The notes under the pieces were generated by a model. The model was not told the origin of the DNA. It ran no database searches and was given only the letters and a program-made list of their open reading frames with translations. Shown in pieces: positions 1-43,949 of a stretch of 43,949 bases of DNA (positions within the stretch are counted from its first letter, which is position 1; each line of letters opens with the position of its first letter). The translations under genes and the position numbers were made by a program. The DNA lies in IMG/VR virus record IMGVR_UViG_3300045988_155612; one strand, 5' to 3'. This DNA is from a virus.

Positions 1-55
1 GCGCGGCAGCCAGCTTCTTAATCTGGTCAGCCAGACCCTTGACGGCACCGTCCGC
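1..55. repeat. Terminal overlap, identical to 43895-43949
   Basis: gcgcggcagccagcttcttaatctggtcagccagacccttgacggcaccgtccgc occurs at both ends; compared base by base by eye. Confidence 0.95.
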
Positions 56-7787: not shown

Positions 7788-7976
7788 GGTAGTCGAGTAG
7801 CGCGTGTAACAAAGATTCCTTATATATACATGTAATGCGAGGGAGCGAACAAGTTGTGTCGAGTGTCCCTTTACTTTTTTAAAAAATGTTTTTAAGATTT
7901 TTCGACTACCAGTACTACCAAGTAGCCAAAAGCATTGATATATAAGGCTTTTTTGAGGTAGCAGAGTAGGTAGCAC
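7788..7976. repeat. Repeat family 2, copy A (between the primase/helicase and VRR-NUC genes)
   Basis: ggtagtcgagtagc...ttccttatatatacatgtaatgcgagggagcg...cgactaccagtactaccaagtagccaaaagc...gaggtagcagagtaggtagc. By eye, roughly 75-80% identical to copy B over about 190 bp. Confidence 0.8.
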
Positions 7977-20666: not shown

Positions 20667-20857
20667 GGTAGTCGGTAGTCCGTTTTAACGAATTTTCCTT
20701 ATATATACATGTAATGCAAGGGAGCGACGAGATTGCGCTTTGAGTCCCTTTACTTTTTGGAAAAATCTTTTTAGTTTTTACGAACTACCAGCACTACCAA
20801 ATAGCCAAAAGCCTTGTAAATCAAAGACTTTCTTCGGTAGCAGGCTCAGTAGCAGAG
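20667..20857. repeat. Repeat family 2, copy B (downstream of the serine recombinase; its right end enters the 3' end of CDS 20821..21408)
   Basis: ggtagtcggtagtc...ttccttatatatacatgtaatgcaagggagcg...gaactaccagcactaccaaatagccaaaagc...cggtagcaggctcagtagc. Confidence 0.8.
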
Positions 20858-22390: not shown

Positions 22391-22479
22391 CTGACAATTA
22401 TATTTTACCGTGTTCAGTAGAAAAAGGGAGCGCGCAAAACTGCCGGGATTCTGCGAACTTTTCGTTGCAGTTCTACCGC
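22391..22479 (-). repeat. Intergenic repeat family 1, copy 1 (upstream of the SprT-like gene)
   Basis: Core gggagcgcgcaaaactgccgggattctgcgaacttttcgttgcagttctaccgc, plus an AT-rich flank ending in ttgacaatt. Confidence 0.85.
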
Positions 22480-23270
22480 TTTTGGTAAGAAGCTGCCTCC
22501 ACGGTGTTCTTGAGCAGCATGGCGACGGTCATCGGGCCCACGCCGCCGGGTACCGGAGTAATCGCTGACGCCTTTGCCGCGACCTCCTCAAAAGCAACGT
22601 CTCCACAGAGCTTACCGTTCTCGTCCCGGTTAATTCCGACATCGATAACGACCGCCCCCGGCTTAACCATGTCTGCGGTAATAAAGCGGGGCTTACCGAC
22701 TGCCGAGATAAGTATATCGGCCTGACGAGTATAGCTCGCGAGGTCCTTCGTCTTAGAGTGGCATACGGTAACGGTGGCGTTCGCATGCAGAAGCATAAGG
22801 GCAAGTGGCTTGCCTACGATATTGCTGCGCCCGATAATGACGCAGTGCTTCCCGCTTACGTCTCCCAGCAAATGGAGGATTCCGGCCGGAGTGCAGGGCC
22901 TGAGACCAGCCTCTCCGGTCAAGAGCTTTCCAATATTATAGGGGTGGAAGCAATCCACGTCTTTCTCCGGCGGTATTGCGCCGAGTACCTTCTTCTCGTC
23001 AATGTGTTCCGGGAGAGGAAGCTGAACGAGAATACCGTCCGCCCACGCGCTGAGCCCTGCGATAGACGCGATGACCTCTTTGGTCGACGCCGTAGCCGGC
23101 AACCTGCGAGAGCAAGACCGAATACCGACCTCGGCGCAAGCGCGTTCCTTGTTGCGGACATAAACCGAGGAAGCGGGGTTGTCGCCGACCATAATAACGG
23201 CGAGCTTTGCGTCAGAGCCTTGCAAAGAAGCCTTCACCTGAGCGGCGATAGCTTTTCCGTCAATAATCAT
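22473..23270 (-). CDS. folD: Bifunctional 5,10-methylene-THF dehydrogenase/cyclohydrolase FolD
   Basis: MIIDGKAIA..., [49 protein letters not shown]. Confidence 0.88.
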
Positions 23271-23449
23271 TCGCTTTCCTCCTCAAAAACATCAAGAGGA
23301 ATGGCGATTTCATCCTCTTCGGTATCATCTACCGCAGCATAGCCAATGCCGTCACATGCGGTAACTAACTGAGCGCAGTCTAAATCTTCACCGACAGCCT
23401 CGATAAAGCTGTCTCGGTCGATTTCAGTAACCTTAAAATATCGAGCCAT
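23267..23449 (-). CDS. Small, highly acidic protein (60 aa)
   Basis: Hand count gives 19 Asp/Glu against 3 Arg/Lys. Start and stop overlap the neighbouring genes. Confidence 0.6.
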
Positions 23450-23655
23450 TATTCTTCCTCCTTATCCGGTTTTGTCAGGTCCTCAGGCTGGCAGTCGAGA
23501 GCCTGCGCGAGCTTGAGCGCCGTTTTGAGCGTGATATTCTCAGGCTTGATGATACCGACCTCAATATCACGGATTTTCTGGTAGCGGATTCCGCTGACTT
23601 TTGCCAGCTCGGTGCGGCTGTAGCCTTTCGCAAGCCGCAAATCTTTAAGTCCCAA
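23449..23655 (-). CDS. XRE-family HTH protein
   Basis: LRLAKGYSRTELAKVSGIRYQKIRDIEVG. Confidence 0.75.
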   Translation of the reverse strand: MGLKDLRLAKGYSRTELAKVSGIRYQKIRDIEVGIIKPENITLKTALKLAQALDCQPEDLTKPDKEEE

Positions 23656-23673
23656 AGTGTCATTCTCCTTTCA

Positions 23674-23696
23674 CCGCGGGGCACAAGGCCCCGCGG
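23674..23696 (-). promoter_or_regulatory. GC hairpin downstream of VR2 (DGR target-recognition hairpin/cruciform candidate)
   Basis: ccgcggggc-acaag-gccccgcgg: a 9-bp perfect stem with the same 5-nt loop as the VR1 hairpin, about 17 nt past the stop codon. Confidence 0.75.
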
Positions 23697-23712
23697 ATTC
23701 ATAGATTGATGA

Positions 23713-24282
23713 TTAGATATAGAAGCCGAAGCAGACGCCGTTGGTGTAGTTGGCGCTGTTAATGCTCGCGCCGCCGTAGCTGTCCACAAAGCAGAAGTAG
23801 CTGGAGTAGCTCCCACGAGGAGAACGCTCCCACCACCAGTACGCATCTCCGTCTTCGTCGACCTTGATACGGTTGCGACGGTCCTTGAAGTACTCGAACT
23901 GGAAGCCGCGGTCAGGGTCATTCTCGGTCCAGTCATGTTCACCGAAGACCTCCATCTCGGAGAAGAGCCAGAGCTTGTCCTCCTCTTTGCCGAACTTGCG
24001 GGGCTTGATAGCTGCGATAAGCGCATCAGGGAGCAGCGCGATAACTTCCTCGTTGAGGTAGCGACGCATATCGCAGGCAAGCCAGCCGCCTTCGTTGGTC
24101 CACTCCTTATTCATGCGGTGGTAGCCGAGCAGATTCTTCAGCCCGATAACGCCGTCGTCCATGACGACGAACACAACCTCGCGGCCGTCCTTGAGAGTCT
24201 CGACGATTTCATCGCCGACCTTGAGCGTACCCGGATTCGCCCAGTTAAAGGCCCGGGTCTCTTTCGTTGTAATAGTTGCCAT
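23713..24282 (-). CDS. Second DGR target: stand-alone lectin-fold-like protein whose C-terminus carries VR2
   Basis: Start trimmed to MATITTKE, preceded by AGGAGG. It is paralogous to the C-terminal domain of the tail fibre (KLWLFSEMEVFG vs KLFLFSEIEIFG; WWWERSP...GVCFGF). Its last ~42 codons align with the TR. Confidence 0.85.
   Translation of the reverse strand: MATITTKETRAFNWANPGTLKVGDEIVETLKDGREVVFVVMDDGVIGLKNLLGYHRMNKEWTNEGGWLACDMRRYLNEEVIALLPDALIAAIKPRKFGKEEDKLWLFSEMEVFGEHDWTENDPDRGFQFEYFKDRRNRIKVDEDGDAYWWWERSPRGSYSSYFCFVDSYGGASINSANYTNGVCFGFYI
23722..23846 (-). repeat. DGR variable repeat VR2 (3' end of 23713..24282)
   Basis: About 123-nt alignment to the TR with 17 mismatches, all at TR adenines on the coding strand. 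Confidence 0.9.
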
Positions 24283-24311
24283 AATAAAAACCTCCTGAAA
24301 AATGTATTTGC

Positions 24312-25040
24312 TTATAAGAGCGTTCTGCCCTTGAGAAGCCTTCTGATAGTCCACACGTCGGAGCAGTACATCGGCGTAAGCCAGTAGTTCTCCAATGAGT
24401 CGTCCGAGCGCATGGGCTCGGTAAGTGAGTTGCCTACTTTGATATAACCGGCGACGCCGAGAAGCGAGAGCTGGATATAACACATGTATGCTACGGTGTA
24501 ATCAACATCCTGCGCGGTCACGAGAATGTGGTTTTGCCAGTTCAGACCGGCCTTGCTTATCTGCTTAGCCGCAGCGTGAACGCCGGCAATCAAAGTAGCG
24601 CCGGCACCGCAAGCGCAATCGTTAATTGAGATATAGCCTTTCGCCTCGATAGTCGGTAGCACGTTGTCACAAGTCATTTCCGCCATCATTCGGCAAACAT
24701 CGTAAGGCGTAAAGAACTGCCCGCCGGAGTCATTGCCGAGATTAAGCGCCATAAAGATACTTCCGAGGAAGTCTTGCTCTGGATTCTTCTCGAGAGCAAG
24801 GACCACTTCCGCAGCGAGCTGAGGAAAAATCTCTTGCTCCTTCTTGTTGTACTTCTGAATCCGCTTGAGGTAGAGTTCCTCGCGCTTTTCAAAGTGGGAC
24901 TTGTCGACCGCGTTCGAAATAGCGCAAGCGTACATCGTAACGAAGTCCTGCCAGACCTCCCGTGGAGTCCAGCGGTATGTAAGCTCTCGGAAGAGCTTTA
25001 CAAAAGGTTGGTCATTGGTCTTTCCGACTCTTTTTGCCAT
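24312..25040 (-). CDS. N6-adenine-MTase-like protein, truncated, with no canonical catalytic motif IV
   Basis: Motif X-like GGQFFTPYDV and motif I-like INDCACGAGATLIAG are present. No (D/N/S)PP(Y/F/W) is seen, and the ORF ends about 95 aa after motif I. Confidence 0.6.
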   Translation of the reverse strand: MAKRVGKTNDQPFVKLFRELTYRWTPREVWQDFVTMYACAISNAVDKSHFEKREELYLKRIQKYNKKEQEIFPQLAAEVVLALEKNPEQDFLGSIFMALNLGNDSGGQFFTPYDVCRMMAEMTCDNVLPTIEAKGYISINDCACGAGATLIAGVHAAAKQISKAGLNWQNHILVTAQDVDYTVAYMCYIQLSLLGVAGYIKVGNSLTEPMRSDDSLENYWLTPMYCSDVWTIRRLLKGRTLL

Positions 25041-25085
25041 TGAGTTGCCTCCTTTAATAAAGTAGTGTGCTAAAGTAATCAGCCC

Positions 25086-25107
25086 GAAAGAAACGCCCTT
25101 GCGGGCG
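25086..25107 (-). terminator. Terminator-like hairpin after the 63-aa ORF
   Basis: On the minus strand: CGCCC-GCAA-GGGCG followed by TTTCTTTC. Confidence 0.5.
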
Positions 25108-25115
25108 AATCTTTC

Positions 25116-25307
25116 TCAGACGATATTGACCTCGTAAATGAGGTAGTCGGTGAAGTCTGCCGTGCGGTAAAGGTACGGCGAGATTTGCTGCGGACGGTCG
25201 GAACGGCTCTCGACAAAGGCTTGCGCCTTTTCTAAAGTCGAGTAGCCCTCCTGACTGACTTTCCCGAGGCTTGCTTCGGGAATCACTTGAACGATGTAAA
25301 CTTTCAT
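25116..25307 (-). CDS. Hypothetical protein (63 aa)
   Basis: AAGGAGG RBS. Followed by a hairpin with a T-rich tail. Confidence 0.6.
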   Translation of the reverse strand: MKVYIVQVIPEASLGKVSQEGYSTLEKAQAFVESRSDRPQQISPYLYRTADFTDYLIYEVNIV

Positions 25308-25411
25308 GTTATTGCCTCCTTGTTTTTAATGTCAAGAGGTTACCTTTCGCAGCGCGCTTACCGCTTGAAGCTCGTAAGCTGGGCGGCGCTGTCCGCATTC
25401 TGTTTTATCCT

Positions 25412-25502
25412 CTTGACATTATTTATTATGCCGCGTTTTACTGATTTCGGGAGCGCGCAAAACTGCCGGGATTTTGCGAACTTTCCGTTGTGGTTTTACC
25501 GC
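25412..25502 (-). repeat. Intergenic repeat family 1, copy 2 (upstream of the 63-aa ORF)
   Basis: Core gggagcgcgcaaaactgccgggattttgcgaactttccgttgtggttttaccgc. Confidence 0.85.
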
Positions 25503-25504
25503 TT

Positions 25505-25837
25505 TCAGTCAATCGCGTCGACCTCGCCGGCTCTCATAGCAGCCAGAATCGCGTTGAGCTCGTTTGCGAGGAAGCGGTGACACATGCGCAGCTTCATGTC
25601 AAGCTCCTTCTTCGTATACTTGCGGTCGACCGCTTTAAGGTAGTCATACCACGGGGAAAAGTCCGGGTCGAAGAGCATACAATGCGTTTCGTCATAGCAA
25701 AGCTCGAATACCTTCTTTACCTCAAAGCATTTACTAAAATGCTCTGCCGACCGGCGAACGGTCCAGTTTGTGGCCTTTACGGCGTCAGCGCACCGCTGCA
25801 GAGCGGAGTAGCTGTAGCAAGCGCGTTGGAAATTCAT
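25505..25837 (-). CDS. Hypothetical Cys/His-rich protein (110 aa)
   Basis: TAAGGAGG RBS. No motif I recognise. Confidence 0.6.
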   Translation of the reverse strand: MNFQRACYSYSALQRCADAVKATNWTVRRSAEHFSKCFEVKKVFELCYDETHCMLFDPDFSPWYDYLKAVDRKYTKKELDMKLRMCHRFLANELNAILAAMRAGEVDAID

Positions 25838-25947
25838 AGAATCGTTACCTCCTTAGGGTTTACTTTCTCGTCTGAACGCGATATAATATATGAACACTCT
25901 TAAGCTCAGCCAGTCTTGTGACCGGCCAAGCTCTCGAGCGGACGAGG

Positions 25948-26052
25948 TTAGTCGTCAGTTACGTATTCAAGGTACTCGGTGTCTGTCGCGAAGAGCATGT
26001 ACTCTCCGTTTACCAAGCCCATGAATCCGTAGTCGGTGTGATAGCCGTCCAT
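25948..26052 (-). CDS. Possible 34-aa acidic micro-ORF (MDGYHTDYGFMGLVNGEYMLFATDTEYLEYVTDD)
   Basis: Not in the supplied ORF track because it is shorter than 60 aa. GAAAGGAGG lies 7 nt upstream of the ATG. Translated by hand. Confidence 0.45.
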   Translation of the reverse strand: MDGYHTDYGFMGLVNGEYMLFATDTEYLEYVTDD

Positions 26053-26119
26053 GATTGACCTCCTTTCTGAGCTCTCGTTGCTGGAACAACGGGGGCTCTT
26101 TTCTTTGTCAAGGCTTTCC

Positions 26120-26211
26120 CCTTGACAATTATTATTTTACCGTGTTTGGTAAGAAAAGGGAGCGCGCAAAACTGCCGGGATTCTGCGAACTTTCCGTTGC
26201 ATTTCTACCGC
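26120..26211 (-). repeat. Intergenic repeat family 1, copy 3 (upstream of the 34-aa micro-ORF, just after the endolysin terminator)
   Basis: Core gggagcgcgcaaaactgccgggattctgcgaactttccgttgcatttctaccgc. Confidence 0.85.
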
Positions 26212-26259
26212 AAATAGTAAAAGGCCGGAGCCGTCCCACGAAGGAACGACTCCGGCCTT
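26212..26259 (-). terminator. Terminator after the endolysin gene
   Basis: On the minus strand: AAGGCCGGAG...CTCCGGCCTT (10-bp stem) followed by TTTTACTATTTG. Confidence 0.6.
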
Positions 26260-26264
26260 ATCTC

Positions 26265-27188
26265 TTAGGCGAACTGATTTACTTTTTTCTGTACGGCGGC
26301 ATAGTCATACCCAGCGGCCTCAAGCCGCTTTTTACGCTCCGCACCGTTGCCCCACTTGCCTTGCAGGACCTCCCGAGCGAGCTCGTCTACCGACTTGCCC
26401 GCACCCTCCGCAGTAGTGATGAAGGCCGAAAAGCCCGCGGCTTGCAGCTTCTTCATCATAGCTTCCGCGTTCGCCTTGACCTTGAAGGCCCCGACCTGAA
26501 TCTTGTAGAGGTCTCCGGCCTTCACCATATAGGTGTCGAAGCCTTTCGCCTTGACCTTAGCCAGCATGGCGTCTGCGTTTGCCTTAGACTTAAAAGCACC
26601 CGTCTGGACGCGATACAAGCCCCCAGACGGCTTTTCAGGCGCGGGCTTGATATTCGTACTCCCGAGGCGTTTGTTGACCTCAGAGGCAATCTGGGCGTGC
26701 CGTTCGTAGAGGTATGTACCGGGGCAGCTCTTATTCGCAAACCAACGGTGTACGGTCATGTTCTGCTTGTCCGGCTGACCGATAAGAGACTTGTCAGCCT
26801 TCCACTTGAGTTCCTTGATTCCGTTACGCTTGCAAATATCGACGAGCAGGTCGATAAGCGCGGCATAGGCCTTCGCATTGACCGCGTAAGGCTCTTTGGT
26901 GTCGCTGGCGACCTCAATCGTAATTGCGCGGTTGTCGTTCGCCGCGTTCGAGGAGCACCACGAGCGGTCTTTCTCCTCGACATACATACCGATACGGCCG
27001 TCATACCCGATACCGTAGTTGCTGGACGCCTGCCGAGAGGTGGGCGCGAACACGTTGCCGAGGGTCTCGACCGAGCATTGACCGACTACGCAATGGATAG
27101 TTACGGTATCGATTTTGTGGTTGCGAGGGCTCGACTTATTCGGCGAGATTTTTGTATAGCTTACGAGCGGGCTGTTACTCATTCTCAA
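26265..27188 (-). CDS. Endolysin: N-acetylmuramoyl-L-alanine amidase, two SPOR-like repeats and a CW_7-like C-terminus
   Basis: Amidase_2-like N-terminus (IDTVTIHCVVG..., NDNRAITIEV). SPOR-like LYRVQTGAFKSKANADAM and LYKIQVGAFKVKANAEAM. C-terminal GKWGNGAERKKRLEAAGYDYAAVQKKVN. Confidence 0.85.
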   Translation of the reverse strand: MRMSNSPLVSYTKISPNKSSPRNHKIDTVTIHCVVGQCSVETLGNVFAPTSRQASSNYGIGYDGRIGMYVEEKDRSWCSSNAANDNRAITIEVASDTKEPYAVNAKAYAALIDLLVDICKRNGIKELKWKADKSLIGQPDKQNMTVHRWFANKSCPGTYLYERHAQIASEVNKRLGSTNIKPAPEKPSGGLYRVQTGAFKSKANADAMLAKVKAKGFDTYMVKAGDLYKIQVGAFKVKANAEAMMKKLQAAGFSAFITTAEGAGKSVDELAREVLQGKWGNGAERKKRLEAAGYDYAAVQKKVNQFA

Positions 27189-27564
27189 TACCTCCTTCTG
27201 TCTTAGCGTTCAGGATTGCCACGAACTTAGTAAAGGCCTCCTTGATGTACTTGCAGGCCACGAGTAGCACGGCACCGATGATAATAAGGTCAGCGAAGAG
27301 GTCGGAGTACTCCTCGGGAATCGCCCAGCCGACTTGATTTGCGAACAGGGGCAGAGTCGTGATTGCCGTACAGAGCAGCGTCAGGCCGACCACGAAGGTC
27401 AGAATCTTAAGGCCGCTCGCAATGAGCTTGTCCTTGTCAAAGGACTCATGCAGAATCTTGATGTTGTACCAGAGCGAAAATGCGACATTCGCAAGGTACG
27501 CAGCGAGGAAGATAAGCATAGCCCAGCCGATGTTGATAAGGTTTTGCAGTACGCTTTCTAACAT
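27175..27564 (-). CDS. Putative holin (multi-TM)
   Basis: Start trimmed to MLESVLQN, preceded by AAAGGAGG. Several hydrophobic helices. Immediately upstream of the endolysin gene. Confidence 0.65.
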   Translation of the reverse strand: MLESVLQNLINIGWAMLIFLAAYLANVAFSLWYNIKILHESFDKDKLIASGLKILTFVVGLTLLCTAITTLPLFANQVGWAIPEEYSDLFADLIIIGAVLLVACKYIKEAFTKFVAILNAKTEGGIENE

Positions 27565-27568
27565 GTTT

Positions 27569-27826
27569 TCAGTCCTCCTTTGAATCATTGTATATATCAG
27601 GCCCGTATTTCTTACGGAGCTTGATTCGGTTTTCGGCTTTTGCCTTACTATAGTAGAAGCCGGTCGCAGTAGCGAGCTCGGCAAAGATGGCGGGGATAAG
27701 GTATGCAAGCGGCGAAGTGTCGCCAGTTTTCCAAACGACGGCCAAAGTAAAGACCGTTACGATATCCGTAGCGGTCCCAACAATGGCGATTATGATTTTG
27801 GAAAACTCTCGTTTCTTAGCTCTCAT
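27569..27826 (-). CDS. Small two-TM membrane protein (holin/antiholin candidate)
   Basis: Hydrophobic segments IIIAIVGTATDIVTVFTLAVVW and LAYLIPAIFAELATATGFYY, with a charged C-terminus. Confidence 0.6.
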   Translation of the reverse strand: MRAKKREFSKIIIAIVGTATDIVTVFTLAVVWKTGDTSPLAYLIPAIFAELATATGFYYSKAKAENRIKLRKKYGPDIYNDSKED

Positions 27827-28130
27827 CGGGCGGCGATACCGGCAGCTCCAAGAACTTGTTATGGAGGTCGTCCATAACGCCGTTCACACCGAGAGAGTGG
27901 TACTGCTTCCAGCAGTTTTCAAAGTTCTCCCGGGCGTAGATAGGAGCGAAGCCGCGGTCCTCCCATTTGTTGTAGTCGCTAATCATCTGCGACCTGAGCA
28001 AGGCTTGCAGTCCCGCCTTTACCGCAGCCGTGTCCAGAGCGTTCTTCTTGACGAGGGAGTGTAGGTACTTGAAGATGGCCGCAATGAGCGCAGGCACGCC
28101 CAAAAGACAGAGCCATTGATAAACCGTCAT
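27816..28130 (-). CDS. Membrane-anchored protein of the lysis cassette
   Basis: N-terminal TM segment WLCLLGVPALIAAIF. Function unknown. Confidence 0.55.
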   Translation of the reverse strand: MTVYQWLCLLGVPALIAAIFKYLHSLVKKNALDTAAVKAGLQALLRSQMISDYNKWEDRGFAPIYARENFENCWKQYHSLGVNGVMDDLHNKFLELPVSPPDES

Positions 28131-28816
28131 TCAGTAACCTCCTCCCAGCCGTAGACGCCCGGCTCCCATACATTGTTGGCGACTGTGCTTGTCCAGCGCT
28201 TGCCGTTGTGCGCTACCTTATCGCCGAGACCATAGGCGTCAGTTGCGCCGAGCGGCTGAGACCATTCGGGGTATTCCGCGGTGGGGTCTCCGATTTCCTT
28301 CCAGAGACTTGCGGCCGAGGGAGGCGTCCAATCTGCCTGAGAGGTATGCGCCTGCAAGCAGCGGTAGAGCTTGCCCTCATAGGAGCAGATAGCCTTGACA
28401 GCATAGCTTACGGGGTACGCCCATGCGCTGAACTGCTCGGCATGCTCCGTGAGGGTCGTGTCGTCGAGCTGCTCAGTTTCCGCCATCTTGACAAAGATGA
28501 TATTCGCAAGCTCAGGAGCCTGCGCCTTTGCAAGTGCGGTCAAGTTCGCCTCGGTCGTGTAGAACTCCCCGGCATGGTAGAAGTAAAAGCCGGCGACGAC
28601 TCCCGCAGGAACGCTCTCGACCTCGACGAGCTTATGACTGTCGCAGAGGTAGCCGACCGTTTCAGTAGGCCAGAAGGTGTTGGAGTCGTTCGAGTAAATC
28701 GCGTCGGCTTTGTCCTGCTCACTGAGAACGACGACGCCGTTTGCCTGCCTGCGAACATAACAGGGGTGCTCGCAGATTTCGACAATGAGATTTGCCGAGT
28801 TTGTGATTAAGTACAT
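28127..28816 (-). CDS. Protein with two C-terminal CBM5/12 (ChtBD3)-like carbohydrate-binding repeats
   Basis: YEGKLYRCLQAHTSQADWTPPSAASLWKEI and GDKVAHNGKRWTSTVANNVWEPGVYGWEEV. Start chosen at MYLITN, preceded by TGGAGGAAAG. Confidence 0.6.
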   Translation of the reverse strand: MYLITNSANLIVEICEHPCYVRRQANGVVVLSEQDKADAIYSNDSNTFWPTETVGYLCDSHKLVEVESVPAGVVAGFYFYHAGEFYTTEANLTALAKAQAPELANIIFVKMAETEQLDDTTLTEHAEQFSAWAYPVSYAVKAICSYEGKLYRCLQAHTSQADWTPPSAASLWKEIGDPTAEYPEWSQPLGATDAYGLGDKVAHNGKRWTSTVANNVWEPGVYGWEEVTE

Positions 28817-30000
28817 AACGCTTTCCTCCATTCGATTTTATTGTTCGGGTGGAATCCAAACAGTTTCTTAAAATATAGGTCCATGCGTGCTACAGCGTGA
28901 AAGCTGTTACCGCGGCGCATGTGCCCGCGCCAGCTTTCATAGGCGCTGCAAATATCCGAGAGCGGGAATACGCGCCGGACGGGTTTCCCGGCGATTGTCA
29001 CGACTCGGCCCTCAGTATTCCAGAGCTTGAACTTTTTGAGCTTGCGTCGGATTTTCTTAATACTCTCAAAGCTCATCTTGCGGAGTACCTTGCCGGTCTC
29101 CGTCAGCTTGAAGCGGATTTGCAAGAACTTGAAGCCCTCGCTGAGCTTCTTGATTTTTGTCTTTTTCGTATTAAGAACGATACCGAGAGAATCACAGACC
29201 TCTTTCATGCGAGCAAGACACTCTTTGAGGTATTCCTTGCTCGGGTGAATCAGGTAGCCGTCGTCCATGTATCGGGCGTACCCTTTTATGCCGAGCTTTT
29301 CTTTGATGAAGTGGTCGAGCTTATTCGGCAGCATAAGAGCGGCAGTCTGTGAGATTTGACTTCCGAGCCCGTAGCCGATGGGACCGAAGTTATCGAGGCA
29401 CTCGTTCGCAAGAGCCCTGATTCTCACGTCATGCACGCGCTTTGCCAGCTCACGGCTGACCGGCCAGTGCTGAGCGTTGGCGAAGTAGTTGGAAAAATCA
29501 AAGAGAAGAACATAGCCCTCGCGCCCGTATTTCCTGTAATGCCTTTGCAAGTGGCAGGAGGGGCGGTTAAGAGCGAAGTCGATTCCCTTGTTCTCAGTAC
29601 TTGCGCCGTTGTCATAGATGAATGCCGGCTTGAGCGTCGGGTTTATGACCTTATCGCAGAGCGTTCTCTGCACGACGCGCTCGCTGATATGAATACTTCT
29701 GATATGCCGCATTTTCCCTCGGTCGTAGAGGTCAAACTCAATAAAGCCTCTGCTCTTATACGACCCGTCGAGAAGCGTGCGGCGCGTTGTCGCCGTATTC
29801 GTTACAAGGTTGAAACGGTACATTTGCGTAGAGCTTTTCCAGCTAACGCCGCGGCAGCAAATATGCCCGGCCTGATATAGATTTTCATAAGAAAAGACGT
29901 CCTCAAAGTCTCCGCAGGATTTGCTGAGAGCGAGGCGTCTTTCTTGTCGTTTCTTGACTCGCCTTTGATAGCGAGCCTCGTGTCTTTCTTCGCTTGTCAT
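28807..30000 (-). CDS. DGR reverse transcriptase
   Basis: YMDD box (GYARYMDDGYLIH) and the DGR-type motif LGSQISQ. Lies next to the TR. Start trimmed to MTSEERHEARY. Confidence 0.9.
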   Translation of the reverse strand: MTSEERHEARYQRRVKKRQERRLALSKSCGDFEDVFSYENLYQAGHICCRGVSWKSSTQMYRFNLVTNTATTRRTLLDGSYKSRGFIEFDLYDRGKMRHIRSIHISERVVQRTLCDKVINPTLKPAFIYDNGASTENKGIDFALNRPSCHLQRHYRKYGREGYVLLFDFSNYFANAQHWPVSRELAKRVHDVRIRALANECLDNFGPIGYGLGSQISQTAALMLPNKLDHFIKEKLGIKGYARYMDDGYLIHPSKEYLKECLARMKEVCDSLGIVLNTKKTKIKKLSEGFKFLQIRFKLTETGKVLRKMSFESIKKIRRKLKKFKLWNTEGRVVTIAGKPVRRVFPLSDICSAYESWRGHMRRGNSFHAVARMDLYFKKLFGFHPNNKIEWRKALCT

Positions 30001-30231
30001 TAAAAATTGTCCCCTTTGTACAGTGTTGCACGCGTAAAAGTAACTGCATAGTAGTACCGCCCATGAAACACGGTCCGCGTAAACCGTGCCATGCAAGCAG
30101 CGTCCGAGCGACTACATCAAAGGAGTGTTTTAGCCAAAAGGCAGGGTACGAGTCATCCTTCCATAAAGGTACTGATTTCAGCGGGAGACGCAAGCGTCTA
30201 CTGCTTACTTTGTCGGACCTGATTCCTTATG

Positions 30232-30356
30232 GAATCCGAAGCAGACGCCGTTGGTGTTGTTGGCGTTGTTATTGTTCGCGTTGCCGTTGCTGTTCACATT
30301 GCAGAAGTTGTTGGAGTTGCTCCCATTAGGAGAACGCTCCCACCACCAGTTCGCGG
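30232..30356 (-). repeat. DGR template repeat (TR), non-coding
   Basis: On the minus strand it reads TGGTGGTGGGAGCGTTCTCCTAATGGGAGCAACTCCAACAACTTCTGCAATGTGAACAGCAACGGCAACGCGAACAATAACAACGCCAACAACACCAACGGCGTCTGCTTCGGATTC, which is rich in AAC codons. It lies between avd and the RT gene. Confidence 0.92.
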
Positions 30357-30395
30357 CGCAAAGACAACAGTATCATGACAGGACCCATATATCGG

Positions 30396-30821
30396 TCAGG
30401 GCAGATTCTTGAATCGCTCCTTATCCGATTTCTTTACGCCGGAAATTAGCTTAGCTTCTTCGCTGATGAGAGAAGCCCACTCCTCGAGAGCATTATCAAG
30501 CCAGCGCAGCTTTTCAGGATTCTGCTTGAGAAGGTCGGCCATGATTCCGAGCTGACCGATAAGCGCCTGAAGTGTAGCGTTAGCCTCGATAAGGTGGTCT
30601 CGTCGGAGCTGTACTTCATGCTGATTTCCGGGAAAAACGCTGTTCGCCATTTTGACCTCATTGTAGACGGTATCGGCGAGAGTGCTTAGTTCCTGAGCGC
30701 CGTAGAAGGTATACCTCTTCGGCATTTTCAGGCAGCATTTTCTTGTATGCACAGCGAGATTGCGCGCGGTCTCAACGAACTGGACCGAGCTATCGCCGCG
30801 CAGTGCTTTATATACTGACAT
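30396..30821 (-). CDS. avd: Accessory variability determinant (Avd; four-helix-bundle, 23S-rRNA-IVS protein family)
   Basis: 141 aa, helical, with ...CLKMPKRYTFYGAQEL.... Lies between the VR-bearing gene and the TR. AGGAGG RBS. Confidence 0.8.
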   Translation of the reverse strand: MSVYKALRGDSSVQFVETARNLAVHTRKCCLKMPKRYTFYGAQELSTLADTVYNEVKMANSVFPGNQHEVQLRRDHLIEANATLQALIGQLGIMADLLKQNPEKLRWLDNALEEWASLISEEAKLISGVKKSDKERFKNLP

Positions 30822-30840
30822 AGTTCGCTTTTTCCTCCTA

Positions 30841-30861
30841 CCGGGGCCACAAGGGCCCCGG
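30841..30861 (-). promoter_or_regulatory. GC hairpin downstream of VR1 (DGR target-recognition hairpin/cruciform candidate)
   Basis: ccggggcc-acaag-ggccccgg: an 8-bp perfect stem, about 20 nt past the stop codon. Confidence 0.75.
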
Positions 30862-30880
30862 ATTGACTAAAGATAGTAGA

Positions 30881-32515
30881 TTAAACACAGAAGCCGAAGC
30901 AGACGCCGTCGGCGTCGCTGGCGTTGCTACCGCGCGCGTTGCCGCTGCTGTCCACACCGCAGAAGCTGTAGGAGCCGCTCCCATAAGGAGAACGCTCCCA
31001 CCACCAGCTCGCGGACCCTGTACCGTTGGCGAGGTACTTGATTCTGTTTGCCGCGGTTGCGAAGTAGCTGTACTGCGAGCCCTCGCCGGCTTTCGAGTAG
31101 GTAGTCGCGCCGAAAATCTCAATCTCAGAGAAGAGGAAGAGCTTCATCGAGTTTGTGTTGATAGTCGAGCTCTGACTGCCCGCAGAGGTCTTTTTATTGA
31201 CGTTCTTGAGCACAGCTTGCAGGTCAGTCGGCAGAGTCGGCAAAAGCGTGTTTTGCAGCCACGAGTACATTTCAGAGCCGGTAAAGCCGCCGCTGTTCGT
31301 ATTCGAGGCATTCATTCGGCGCGTAGTTGCCATAAGGTTTTTCAGGCCAAGGGTAATACCGGCTTTACCGCCGCTTGCGAGGTCGTCGTGATTGAAGCCC
31401 ATAATTACGAGCGTCAGGGTCTCACTTCCGACCGTGATGTCCTTCGTATCGCCGACAGACCAGAGCTGAGAAGCCTTGCCTGCGGCAGACGCCTTAGCAA
31501 TCTGCGCCCATGTGTTTTTGGAGAAGGTCGCATTGAAGAACAGACACTCGATGGAGTAGGTCTGCCCGGAGGTCGTGATTGCCACGCTCACGGGGTCGGT
31601 CGTCTCTCCGCTCTTCGTAGCGGTAACGGTATAGGTACCGAACGCGGTAATCGTCAGGGAGAGCACGCCACTCGAAGGCACGGTGCCGGTAAAGGTCTTC
31701 GCGCCGTTTGTGGCGGTAACGGTGGCACCGGGGTCCGAAGTTACCTTCAAGGTCGCAGAGAAATAGGAGAGCGAGATTTTATACTGCTTTACATCGTCAA
31801 CGACAACGTTCTCAGTCGCGGTCTGCCCGTCCTTTACTGCCGTTACGACCCATGTGCCGTACCCCGTCAGGTTGAAGGTCACGGTACCGGTGCTTGTCGC
31901 GGTCAAGGTCTTAGAGCCGCATTTACAGGTAACGGAGCTGCCACTCGGGATTGTGGCGATAATCTGAGGAGGCACGCCGACCGTACCAAGCTGAGATTCG
32001 GGAATCTTACCGTCGCTTCCCAGAGTAGCCACTCCGCCTGCCGCGCCTTTCTGCGAGGTAGGAATATAGCCGAGAGCGGGAATTTGCGCGACCGGGACTT
32101 TCTTATTCGCATCAAGGGACGCGACGCCATTTGCGGCGGCCTTCTGAGAAGTTGGAATGTAATTGAGCGAAGGAAGCTGTCCCGAGGGGACCTTGCCGTC
32201 AGCGCCCAGACTCGCAACGCCTCCTGCGGTGCCCTTTTGAGAAGCGGGGATATAGTCCATAGCGGGAAGCTGCCCCGAGGGGACCTTGCCGTCAGAGCCG
32301 AGGCTTGCGACGCCTCCCGCAGCCCCTTTCTGTGAAGCCGGGATATAGGACAGGCTCGGAAGCTGGCTCTCTTTCAGCTTGCCGGATTCGTCGAGGTCTG
32401 CCTTGTCCTTGAGTGCGGCGTCGATTTTATCCGCGTTCTCATTGAGGTCTGCAATGTCCGCGAAGTCTTCCGGCGCCGGCTTTTTCAGTTTGTAGTTGTC
32501 TGTGTAGGTAGCCAT
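30881..32515 (-). CDS. Tail fibre / receptor-binding protein carrying DGR VR1 at its C-terminus
   Basis: Start trimmed to MATYTDNYKLKKPAPEDF (TAATG overlap with the upstream gene). Four 31-aa repeats, Ig-like Thr/Ser-rich segments, and a C-terminal ...WWWERSPYGSGSYSFCGVDSSGNARGSNASDADGVCFGFCV. Confidence 0.88.
   Translation of the reverse strand: MATYTDNYKLKKPAPEDFADIADLNENADKIDAALKDKADLDESGKLKESQLPSLSYIPASQKGAAGGVASLGSDGKVPSGQLPAMDYIPASQKGTAGGVASLGADGKVPSGQLPSLNYIPTSQKAAANGVASLDANKKVPVAQIPALGYIPTSQKGAAGGVATLGSDGKIPESQLGTVGVPPQIIATIPSGSSVTCKCGSKTLTATSTGTVTFNLTGYGTWVVTAVKDGQTATENVVVDDVKQYKISLSYFSATLKVTSDPGATVTATNGAKTFTGTVPSSGVLSLTITAFGTYTVTATKSGETTDPVSVAITTSGQTYSIECLFFNATFSKNTWAQIAKASAAGKASQLWSVGDTKDITVGSETLTLVIMGFNHDDLASGGKAGITLGLKNLMATTRRMNASNTNSGGFTGSEMYSWLQNTLLPTLPTDLQAVLKNVNKKTSAGSQSSTINTNSMKLFLFSEIEIFGATTYSKAGEGSQYSYFATAANRIKYLANGTGSASWWWERSPYGSGSYSFCGVDSSGNARGSNASDADGVCFGFCV
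30890..31014 (-). repeat. DGR variable repeat VR1 (3' end of the tail-fibre gene)
   Basis: 125-nt alignment to the TR with 20 mismatches, all at TR adenines on the coding strand. Confidence 0.92.
31991..32362 (-). repeat. Four tandem 93-nt (31-aa) repeats inside the tail-fibre gene
   Basis: LPSLSYIPASQKGAAGGVASLGSDGKVPSGQ / LPAMDYIPASQKGTAGGVASLGADGKVPSGQ / LPSLNYIPTSQKAAANGVASLDANKKVPVAQ / IPALGYIPTSQKGAAGGVATLGSDGKIPESQ. Confidence 0.85.
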
Positions 32516-33078
32516 TAAGTAAGTACCTCCTCCTTCAAATCTTTCCACGTGAGCGACTTGACCTCGCTCCATTTATAGGGCTTGACCTTAGCCCACGTGT
32601 TATAAAGAAGCTCTACCGTAAAGACCATGTTATACGGCAGAATGCGCTCAAGCGTCTCGGAGATAATCGTCTCCTGCTTTTTGACGCCGAGTGCGACTTT
32701 CACATTGACGGTAAAGGTCGCCGTCGTGATAGTCAAAACATAACCTCCCGCTCCGCAGAGAGACTCAAGCAGAGCGGCGAGGCTTTTCCTTGTGTAGGGA
32801 ATATTTTCGTTGTACCGGCTGAGCAGCCGGAGCTTGCGGTCGTCAAGAGTATCTGTCGCGAAGGGCGTGATACCCAGCATTTTCTCCCGGCGGGCTACAC
32901 CGTTCTCGGTAGCCTCGGAGATAAATTGGTCGTTCATGCAGTCCTCGCAGGCATCCCAGATGGCTTGTACCTCCGGGGTCTCAGCTTCCATGATTGCCCG
33001 CATTTCCTGTACGTCTTTCAGCACGTCGGGAAGATACTCTTTAAGGTCGATGGTCCTGATGTTGTTGAAGTTACGCAT
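32515..33078 (-). CDS. Baseplate/tail protein (DUF2313, XkdU-like)
   Basis: Lies after the baseplate J gene. The family assignment rests on position and memory of the N-terminus. Confidence 0.6.
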   Translation of the reverse strand: MRNFNNIRTIDLKEYLPDVLKDVQEMRAIMEAETPEVQAIWDACEDCMNDQFISEATENGVARREKMLGITPFATDTLDDRKLRLLSRYNENIPYTRKSLAALLESLCGAGGYVLTITTATFTVNVKVALGVKKQETIISETLERILPYNMVFTVELLYNTWAKVKPYKWSEVKSLTWKDLKEEVLT

Positions 33079-43894: not shown

Positions 43895-43949
43895 GCGCGG
43901 CAGCCAGCTTCTTAATCTGGTCAGCCAGACCCTTGACGGCACCGTCCGC
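43895..43949. repeat. Terminal overlap, identical to 1-55
   Basis: Same 55-mer as bases 1-55. Confidence 0.95.

Follow-up and report, generated by a model that had tools for sequence, protein, structure and literature searches.

A stand-alone DUF6273 protein as a probable second target of the diversity-generating retroelement in a gut phage

Phages in which one diversity-generating retroelement (DGR) has two targets raise the question of why a second protein, one that is not the tail fibre, should be hypermutated. This question is posed by the viral sequence IMGVR_UViG_3300045988_155612, a 43,949-nt stretch of DNA that is referred to here in its full length as the window, in which an open reading frame (ORF) of 189 amino acids (aa; positions 23713..24282, minus strand) ends in a near copy of the variable end of the tail fibre. 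A prediction made earlier from the sequence alone (the original prediction) had proposed that this ORF encodes a second, remote target of the DGR, lying in an accessory island outside the tail module. Our analysis bears this proposal out. We consider it highly probable that the ORF encodes a real and active second target of the single DGR of this phage, and that one template repeat (TR) supplies two variable repeats (VRs) in trans, both of them live, is secure.

A direct repeat is present in the window in three in-register copies (23710-23844, 30220-30354 and 30878-31012), and the genes of interest are all encoded on the minus strand (Table 1). The middle copy was assigned as the TR because it is adenine-rich and is placed between an ORF resembling the accessory protein Avd and an ORF matching the Pfam reverse transcriptase (RT) family RVT_1. 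The copy at 30.9 kb closes the 563-aa tail fibre and constitutes VR1, while the copy at 23.7 kb closes the 189-aa ORF and constitutes VR2. Every one of the 16 mismatches between the TR and the 119-nt core of VR2 falls at a TR adenine (8 A>T, 7 A>G and 1 A>C); with 36 adenines among 119 positions, the probability of this occurring by chance is 2.7e-10. When VR2 is taken to wider limits (23722-23846), one further A>C change common to VR1 is found in the end that resembles an initiation of mutagenic homing (IMH) site, which reproduces the 17 adenine mismatches counted originally. The gap between the TR and VR2 is 6,391 nt, matching the earlier estimate of about 6.4 kb. The TR adenines occupy the first two positions of AAC and AAT codons in the reading frame of the targets, and adenines at codon positions 1 and 2 of AAC/AAT are the classical DGR design.

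The machinery around the TR is in keeping with this assignment. An RT-2 RNA motif lies directly 3' of the TR and covers the first ~100 nt of the longest RT ORF (TTG start at 30096). Because of this overlap the true start of the RT is probably further downstream, and the RT genes called in relatives encode proteins of 338-397 aa. The Avd-like ORF is 91-97% conserved among relatives.

Variation among homologues speaks to whether VR2 is still being rewritten. A search of 5.8 billion clustered proteins returned 294 homologues of the VR2 protein, and 7,170 distinct sequences at ≥90% identity fall into the best homologue cluster by itself. When 54 distinct close homologues, each 189 aa long, were compared, mean column entropy was 2.31 bits for the 20 codons that TR adenines template; the 19 remaining VR codons reached 0.10 bits and the 146 residues of the scaffold 0.19 bits. 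Wherever a related locus contains the remote gene together with the DGR core, nearly all differences between the remote VR and its own TR are at adenines; these loci include clades at 49-64% protein identity and TR distances of 6.0-9.4 kb, and the remaining non-adenine mismatches are fixed 3'-end differences common to the fibre VR. Moreover, 10 of the 34 IMG/VR contigs with a close homologue stop inside the VR2 gene or at most 60 nt past it, which is the effect that within-sample heterogeneity is expected to have on assemblies. Taken together, these comparisons indicate that VR2 is a live target rather than a dead one; it is not invariant, and it varies at the codons that TR adenines template.

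The variants that persist appear to have passed through selection. The scaffold of the VR2 protein has a dN/dS of 0.06-0.27 against seven relatives. Within the VR, the adenine of the GAG codon for the glutamate of WWWERSP is changed in only 1 of 17 genomes, whereas adenines of AAY codons are changed in 24-88%, a contrast suggesting that selection on the protein filters VR2 variants. Variants that have lost this invariant glutamate, or either of two invariant cysteines, are absent or rare.

Both VRs end differently from the TR. VR1 and VR2 alike terminate in GGCGTCTGCTTCGGCTTCT and the TR in GGCGTCTGCTTCGGATTCC, with the last letters being ...GGCTTCT in both VRs and ...GGATTCC in the TR, and the VR-specific 3' end is also found in relatives. 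A hairpin follows each VR at a constant offset of 28-32 nt beyond the IMH core, across clades down to 50% protein identity; its stems differ by lineage, yet they are always perfectly paired. No such GC hairpin follows the TR, either in the window or in any relative checked. In the Bordetella phage BPP-1, an IMH and a downstream hairpin/cruciform direct mutagenic retrohoming. By analogy, RNA of the TR would be copied by the RT and Avd into an adenine-mutagenised cDNA, which would home in trans into either VR through the recognition elements (IMH-like end and hairpin) that each of them has. The VR2 gene itself would be transcribed apart from the late operon, from an accessory cassette that lies between the lysis genes and the prophage end. 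The remote repeat thus presents what is expected of a DGR target: adenine-only differences from the TR, an Avd, a VR-specific IMH-like end with a hairpin, and diversification in populations.

The two VRs were compared in 11 genomes with near-identical TRs. At the variable codons, VR1 and VR2 of one genome share an amino-acid identity of 0.318, compared with 0.300 for VRs taken from different genomes (permutation p=0.22). With no covariation inside genomes, the comparison indicates that VR1 and VR2 are rewritten independently, and rules out both their convergence on one ligand and their co-conversion by a single cDNA. The mutated fraction at TR adenines is 44% for VR1 and 47% for VR2, and the nucleotide spectra at these positions are indistinguishable (chi-square p=0.13), ruling out a systematic difference in mutation spectrum. 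The original prediction had drawn attention to a substitution pattern in VR2 unlike that of VR1. This description holds for the window, where VR2 is rich in A>T and VR1 in A>G, but not as a systematic trait; since the spectra match across the 11 genomes, the difference is best seen as sampling and not as a property of the target. We also considered whether VR2 could be a silent cassette that recombines into the fibre. This was ruled out: the repeats are direct, and recombination between them would delete the DGR and the lysis genes.

What does the second target encode? Residues 56-183 of the VR2 protein match the Pfam family DUF6273 (PF19789) with 59.3 bits against a cut-off of 23.5, the fibre itself scoring 71.1 bits. 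By BLASTP, residues 45-189 align with residues 407-563 of the fibre (40% identity, E=6e-32), and in a global alignment the match reaches the N-terminus, beginning near fibre residue 360. From these alignments, the protein appears to be essentially the entire tip domain of the fibre and nothing more, as had been claimed of its C-terminal domain. A dedicated N-terminal docking peptide was ruled out, the conserved N-terminal segment aligning inside the fibre's own domain. The protein has no shaft, attachment domain, signal peptide or transmembrane (TM) helix; the absence of the last two is deduced from a maximum 19-residue Kyte-Doolittle hydropathy of only 1.30, and the earlier reading of the ORF had been the same. 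It fits neither of two familiar classes of DGR target. Tentaclins differ in that the VR2 protein is a single domain with a C-terminal VR and no immunoglobulin (Ig)-like domain, and as a tail fibre it would be a bare tip whose gene is separated from the tail genes by 6.4 kb and follows both the lysis genes and a terminator.

An AlphaFold2 model built with 38 sequences has a pLDDT of 78 and a pTM of 0.78. It places the variable residues on a predicted beta-hairpin of low confidence (strands 163-166 and 172-175), and the two invariant cysteines lie on either side of this hairpin. Searching BFVD with Foldseek recovered DUF6273 proteins in both forms, stand-alone proteins of 160-260 aa and fibres of 400-870 aa, tail-collar proteins included. 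The family as a whole comprises 2,760 representative clusters at E≤0.001, of which many are stand-alone proteins of 185-230 aa, and the domain also occurs within large proteins with a pilin-like N-terminus and Ig-like repeats. Among PDB entries the top Foldseek hit, which is not significant, was an IgA peptidase of Thomasclavelia ramosa (TMq 0.56, E=0.8), a secreted, cell-wall-anchored enzyme with an N-terminal domain annotated as DUF6273, the function of which is not known (PMC12402451). A PDB profile search with the family alignment gave nothing meaningful, and the VR2 protein matched no PADLOC or NCBIfam model.

The surroundings of the gene distinguish it further from the tail module. The two ends of the window (1-55 and 43895-43949) are identical over 55 nt, so that it looks like a complete circular or terminally redundant phage genome of 43.9 kb. 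Along the minus strand the order runs from the tail genes through the fibre, Avd, TR, RT, a CBM_5_12-type protein and small membrane proteins to the endolysin; a terminator with a 17-bp stem comes next, followed by small ORFs, an ORF resembling the methyltransferase (MTase) HsdM, the VR2 gene, an XRE-type helix-turn-helix (HTH) gene, an acidic ORF, FolD and a SprT-like gene. Beyond the last of these, on the opposite strand, lie a serine integrase and the repressor region. The neighbour string that had been described earlier (MTase-like ORF, VR2 protein, XRE HTH, 60-aa acidic ORF, FolD) agrees with the Pfam matches and with ORF composition.

Relatives were gathered by exact protein look-up and by a scan of IMG/VR. 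A search for the MTase-like/VR-protein/HTH string had been suggested, and it recurs: the order MTase-like, DUF6273, HTH, SprT-like is constant in relatives at 63-94% identity, in about 30 related contigs that include prophages. FolD and the acidic ORF are optional cargo, present or absent among otherwise near-identical relatives. At ~50% identity the order becomes SprT-like, DUF6273, HTH, with the MTase-like gene moved or lost; DUF6273 followed by HTH therefore persists to this distance, and it is absent in the Roseburia phage Shimadzu. One close relative (L055; 97% identity in Avd, 95% in the lysin) carries unrelated genes at the site of the island, and hence the second target is an accessory module. 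In the prophage form, the cassette is located at the prophage end, adjoining the bacterial smpB. The hosts are gut Clostridia, represented by a cultured Flavonifractor isolate and by metagenome-assembled genomes (MAGs) of Clostridiales, Oscillospiraceae and 'Christensenellaceae'. Megablast of positions 22400-33000 against deposited phages gave no match, nucleotide relatives coming from metagenome and IMG/VR collections only.

The original prediction held that a diversified binder among candidate early or anti-defence genes is not the usual DGR context, which overstates the case. Two targets have been reported for about 13% of DGRs, and the closest precedent is orf43 of Shimadzu, likewise a temperate myovirus of a gut Clostridia bacterium. 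Its product is a stand-alone DUF6273 homologue of 209 aa (38% identity, E=1e-25) encoded outside the tail module, and we confirmed that its C-terminal VR is templated by the TR of the tail-fibre VR1, 13.9 kb away. Both Shimadzu VRs were found to be modified in virion reads and in all five ultravirulent isolates (Cornuault et al., 10.1101/575076), making orf43 a published, experimentally diversified remote second target in an early-gene region. The two loci differ in their setting: orf43 belongs to an early/replication module, where a small MTase and Erf flank it and an HTH partner is missing, whereas the window gene is found at the prophage end past the lysis genes, accompanied by an HsdM-like and an XRE-HTH gene.

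Further DGRs with two DUF6273 targets are known from other gut phages. In the Faecalibacterium prophages Lelie and CP11, one DGR serves a large and a small DUF6273 target with C-terminal VRs, and when cognate genomes of CP11 are compared, both VRs prove variable (Gulyaeva et al. 2024, PMC11792537). These are other phage lineages, and our search of the phage database gave no sequence-level match to their small targets. Toutatisvirus has one TR and two DUF6273 targets, the second of which is 17,480 nt from the TR and of unknown function (Egorov et al., 10.1101/2024.10.15.618418); there the remote target belongs to the core genome, being present in 98.8% of phages, and the target close to the DGR is a Hoc-like tentaclin, while in the window the remote target is accessory and the proximal target is the tail fibre. 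The tgt2 proteins of phages nd4 and nd12 also consist of a single globular DUF6273 domain with a C-terminal VR beta-hairpin and are the second of two targets (Baykov et al. 2023, PMC10743442). They differ from the window protein, which is 189 aa, remote from the cassette and partnered by a fibre, in being 234-294 aa, having flanking helices, lying inside the DGR cassette and being paired with a tentaclin that has an N-terminal VR (PMC10743442). The arrangement has thus already been described in related gut phages, and the window is a further well-supported case in a clade unrepresented among deposited phages.

The receptor-binding module Mtd of BPP-1 also carries a DGR-diversified C-terminal VR, with a 3' IMH and a downstream hairpin. 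It is not matched by the window protein in the PDB profile search or by Foldseek, and it differs in size and build: Mtd has 381 aa, with an N-terminal beta-prism and a beta-sandwich for fibre attachment (PMC10743442).

Could the second target be a relic, or not a phage gene in its own right? We regard it as very improbable that VR2 is a duplicate of the fibre tip which the DGR once diversified but no longer acts on. Past and present mutagenesis are indistinguishable from a single genome, and ~20 of 120 listed homologue clusters are frameshifted inside the VR (268-aa forms). Against this, near-identical scaffolds carry different VR2 sequences that depart from one another only at TR-adenine codons, with the entropy expected of a live target; the 7,170 variants of one cluster and the contigs that break at VR2 point in the same direction, as do the intact and conserved IMH-like end and hairpin and a mutation load equal to that of VR1, and the homologous VR2 of Shimadzu is experimentally active (10.1101/575076). 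Still more remote is the idea that the ORF is a piece of the fibre gene misplaced by the assembler, which near-repeat VRs of 135 nt could indeed mislead. Outside the VR it has only 40% identity to the fibre tip, it has its own ribosome-binding site and start codon, over 30 independent contigs, isolate genomes among them, carry this gene in the same setting, and it evolves under purifying selection; the misassembly envisaged earlier as a way in which the proposal could fail is not what was found. Several points nevertheless weigh against a live second target as the explanation of this locus. The RT matches in NCBIfam are all sub-threshold and to generic RT families, and the Avd-like ORF has no Pfam or NCBIfam match. 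The VR segment of the structural model is of low confidence, and Foldseek against the PDB gave no significant match, with no Mtd, TvpA or FGE among the results, so that the C-type-lectin fold claimed in the literature was not recovered. The evidence for VR2 activity consists of variation between genomes and assembly breaks, and the part ascribed here to retrohoming, the IMH and the hairpin is taken over from BPP-1 by likeness. The location of action is also contestable: the protein has no signal peptide, and its cytoplasmic-type neighbours (MTase fragment, HTH, FolD, SprT-like) fit an intracellular role equally with release by lysis.

With regard to that role, we lean tentatively towards the VR2 protein being a variable lectin-like binder that would act extracellularly once the cell has lysed, without depending on the fibre, giving the phage a second, separately evolving ligand specificity. 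We favour an extracellular binder that is no part of the fibre because DUF6273 is otherwise found in tail fibres, in the secreted wall-anchored peptidase (PMC12402451) and in large surface-type proteins, two invariant cysteines flank the hairpin, there is no attachment domain and the gene lies outside the late operon. The protein might instead travel with the virion as a second receptor-binding protein, docking on the baseplate or fibre in the manner of Mtd, so that the virion would have two receptor specificities, each diversified on its own. In favour of this, the protein is paralogous to the tip domain of the fibre itself, tail-collar fibre proteins are among its BFVD neighbours, as a rule phage DGR targets are receptor-binding proteins and a role like that of Mtd has been proposed for small DUF6273 targets (PMC10743442; 10.1101/2024.10.15.618418); in addition, both Shimadzu VRs were altered in all five ultravirulent isolates (10.1101/575076). 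We rate this as somewhat less likely, though still quite plausible, given the lack of an attachment or shaft domain, an N-terminal segment with a counterpart within the fibre domain in place of a docking peptide, a gene position past the late-operon terminator amid non-structural genes, homologues in the early/replication regions of Shimadzu and Dulem virus 34, and the absence of the island from a close relative with near-identical Avd and lysin (L055). It is unlikely that the protein acts inside the cell, expressed early in infection or from the prophage along with neighbours of anti-restriction type, by binding a variable protein of the host or of a competitor phage in anti-defence or superinfection exclusion. 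Such a role would suit the lack of a signal peptide or TM helix, the tight operon-like spacing with the HsdM-like fragment, the XRE HTH and the hyper-acidic 60-aa ORF, the terminator that separates the gene from the late operon, the repeated element of its own that precedes the cassette, the early-region location of the Shimadzu and Dulem virus 34 homologues beside MTases, and a small DUF6273 target that stands beside an SSB-type gene in another contig (L051). All of this is guilt by association, however. The VR2 protein has no PADLOC match, the DUF6273 family otherwise occurs in extracellular contexts, the MTase-like gene is moved or lost at ~50% identity, and the adjacent MTases of the three lineages are non-homologous in phages where MTases are abundant, so the association may be chance. 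For the same reason, and because Shimadzu has many MTases and relatives at ~50% identity move or lose the gene, a conserved pair of an MTase followed by a small DUF6273 gene in the window, Shimadzu and Dulem virus 34 was downgraded to a weak lead.

Looking ahead, the finding leaves knowledge of DGRs unchanged, and it is for the question of the second target that this clade makes a good test system: a minimal 189-aa domain, active, selected and varying independently of the fibre, in a swappable cassette that some relatives lack. At least one cultured gut isolate, Flavonifractor sp. HCP28S3_F3 (NZ_JBQHUF010000003.1, ~162.9-171.5 kb), carries a phage with the second target as a prophage, and the thousands of natural VR2 variants on a near-identical scaffold are a ready library of a small variable binding domain. 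If the intracellular role were true, the protein would be a phage-encoded adaptive binder directed against a host defence protein or an incoming phage.

Table 1. Positions of the DGR components, the two targets and neighbouring features in the window.
Feature	Position	Strand	Evidence and remarks
TR	30236..30354	-	36 A/119; AAC/AAT codons in target frame
VR2, 119-nt core	23726..23844	-	16 TR mismatches, all at TR adenines; P=2.7e-10; population entropy on TR-adenine codons
VR1	30894..31012	-	19 TR mismatches, all at adenines
VR2 protein CDS (coding sequence), 189 aa, probable second DGR target	23713..24282	-	ATG; AGGAGG 8 nt upstream; Pfam DUF6273
Tail fibre, 563 aa, primary DGR target	30881..32572	-	C-terminal DUF6273; after baseplate J and Mu Gp48-type genes in relatives
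IMH-like 3' end of VR2	23721..23739	-	GGCGTCTGCTTCGGCTTCT; TR counterpart GGCGTCTGCTTCGGATTCC; three-copy alignment
GC-rich hairpin after VR2	23674..23696	-	9-bp stem, loop CTTGT, no T-run; DNA fold z=-3.45
Hairpin after VR1	30841..30861	-	8-bp stem, loop CTTGT, no T-run
RT-2 RNA motif (Rfam RF03077)	29991..30222	-	directly 3' of TR; cmscan 154.6 bits vs gathering 40, E=8.8e-37, full-length
RT ORF (longest ORF)	28807..30096	-	Pfam RVT_1
Avd-like accessory protein, 141 aa	30396..30821	-	between fibre and TR; 27% identity, E=2e-7, to annotated Shimadzu Avd
Strong terminator-like hairpin, 17-bp stem	26221..26259	-	after endolysin gene; parts late operon from island; RNA fold
HsdM-like N6-MTase fragment, 242 aa	24312..25040	-	directly upstream of VR2 gene; Pfam N6_Mtase, profile 23-139/311
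XRE-type HTH protein, 68 aa	23449..23655	-	directly downstream of VR2 gene; Pfam HTH_3
Hyper-acidic 60-aa ORF	23267..23449	-	19 D/E vs 3 K/R; overlaps HTH stop and FolD start
FolD	22473..23270	-	neighbour in VR2 gene string
~110-nt intergenic repeat, three copies	22401-22493, 25424-25516, 26133-26225	-	75-87% identity; 25424 copy precedes o63/MTase-like/VR2/HTH unit

The HsdM-like ORF has partial matches to Type I MTases in PADLOC, whose matches near the VR2 gene are to neighbours only, by generic Type I MTase and control-protein models. It has no [NDS]PP[FYW] motif (no NPPF/Y), the only similar sequence being TPMY at residue 222. Its Pfam match covers only the SAM-binding half of enzymes of the HsdM type. 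It had been called truncated. Comparison speaks against a decayed fragment: its 242-aa length is kept in relatives at 68-98% identity, and it looks like a selected non-catalytic fragment and not a pseudogene, possibly an anti-restriction decoy or a binder of SAM (S-adenosylmethionine).

The ~110-nt repeat was found in 40 related loci at the same junctions, namely lysin/cargo, cargo/o63-MTase-like-VR2 unit and (HTH or FolD)/SprT-like, and so brackets variable accessory cassettes. Its core can fold into an RNA stem of 8 bp, G-U pairs included, and a G>A change in one copy preserves the pairing. The element has no Rfam match, and a standard sigma-70 promoter was ruled out because there is no convincing -35/-10 spacing. 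Candidate roles are those of a promoter/operator, an antitermination RNA or a site of cassette exchange. Another direct repeat in the window, of 169 nt and 75% identity, occurs at 7807-7975 and 20686-20854, 12.9 kb apart, with one copy near the presumed attP/integrase region. The 234-aa CBM_5_12-type protein (28127-28831, minus strand) overlaps the RT stop and is found directly downstream of the RT in all relatives (42-99% identity); it may serve the DGR, the tail or lysis.

In the prophage loci L002 and L004 (~13.9-20.5 kb), the prophage end adjoins the bacterial genes smpB, RNase R and secG. The far side of these loci carries a second, inverted baseplate set (Mu Gp48, Baseplate_J, sheath initiator), pointing to another related prophage close by.

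The 268-aa homologues shift frame inside VR2 and then read through the HTH gene in another frame. Their clusters, which include P0003, P0007, P0013, P0018, P0026 and P0044, have few members each, and they may reflect either genuine indels associated with the DGR or chimeras assembled from mixed VR2 populations.

Stand-alone DUF6273 genes were also seen in other settings. The primary DGR target of the IMG/VR contig L051 (9872-10558), directly upstream of Avd, is a stand-alone DUF6273 protein of ~228 aa, and the genes upstream of it are SSB-like or of other early types rather than tail genes. A 203-aa stand-alone protein with 48% identity (L010, 8001-8612) lies in a bacterial chromosomal context beside an extracytoplasmic function (ECF) sigma factor/DUF4367 pair, with no phage or DGR genes within 8 kb. 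Finally, at L091 4001-5355 and L088 3-1083 (MAG ERR318691_bin.113) there is a tandem array of at least 3-5 stand-alone DUF6273 genes of ~190 aa, spaced ~40 nt apart; these have distinct VR-like C-termini and IMH-like GGCGTTTGCTTYGG ends with no GC hairpin, and may form a multi-target array.

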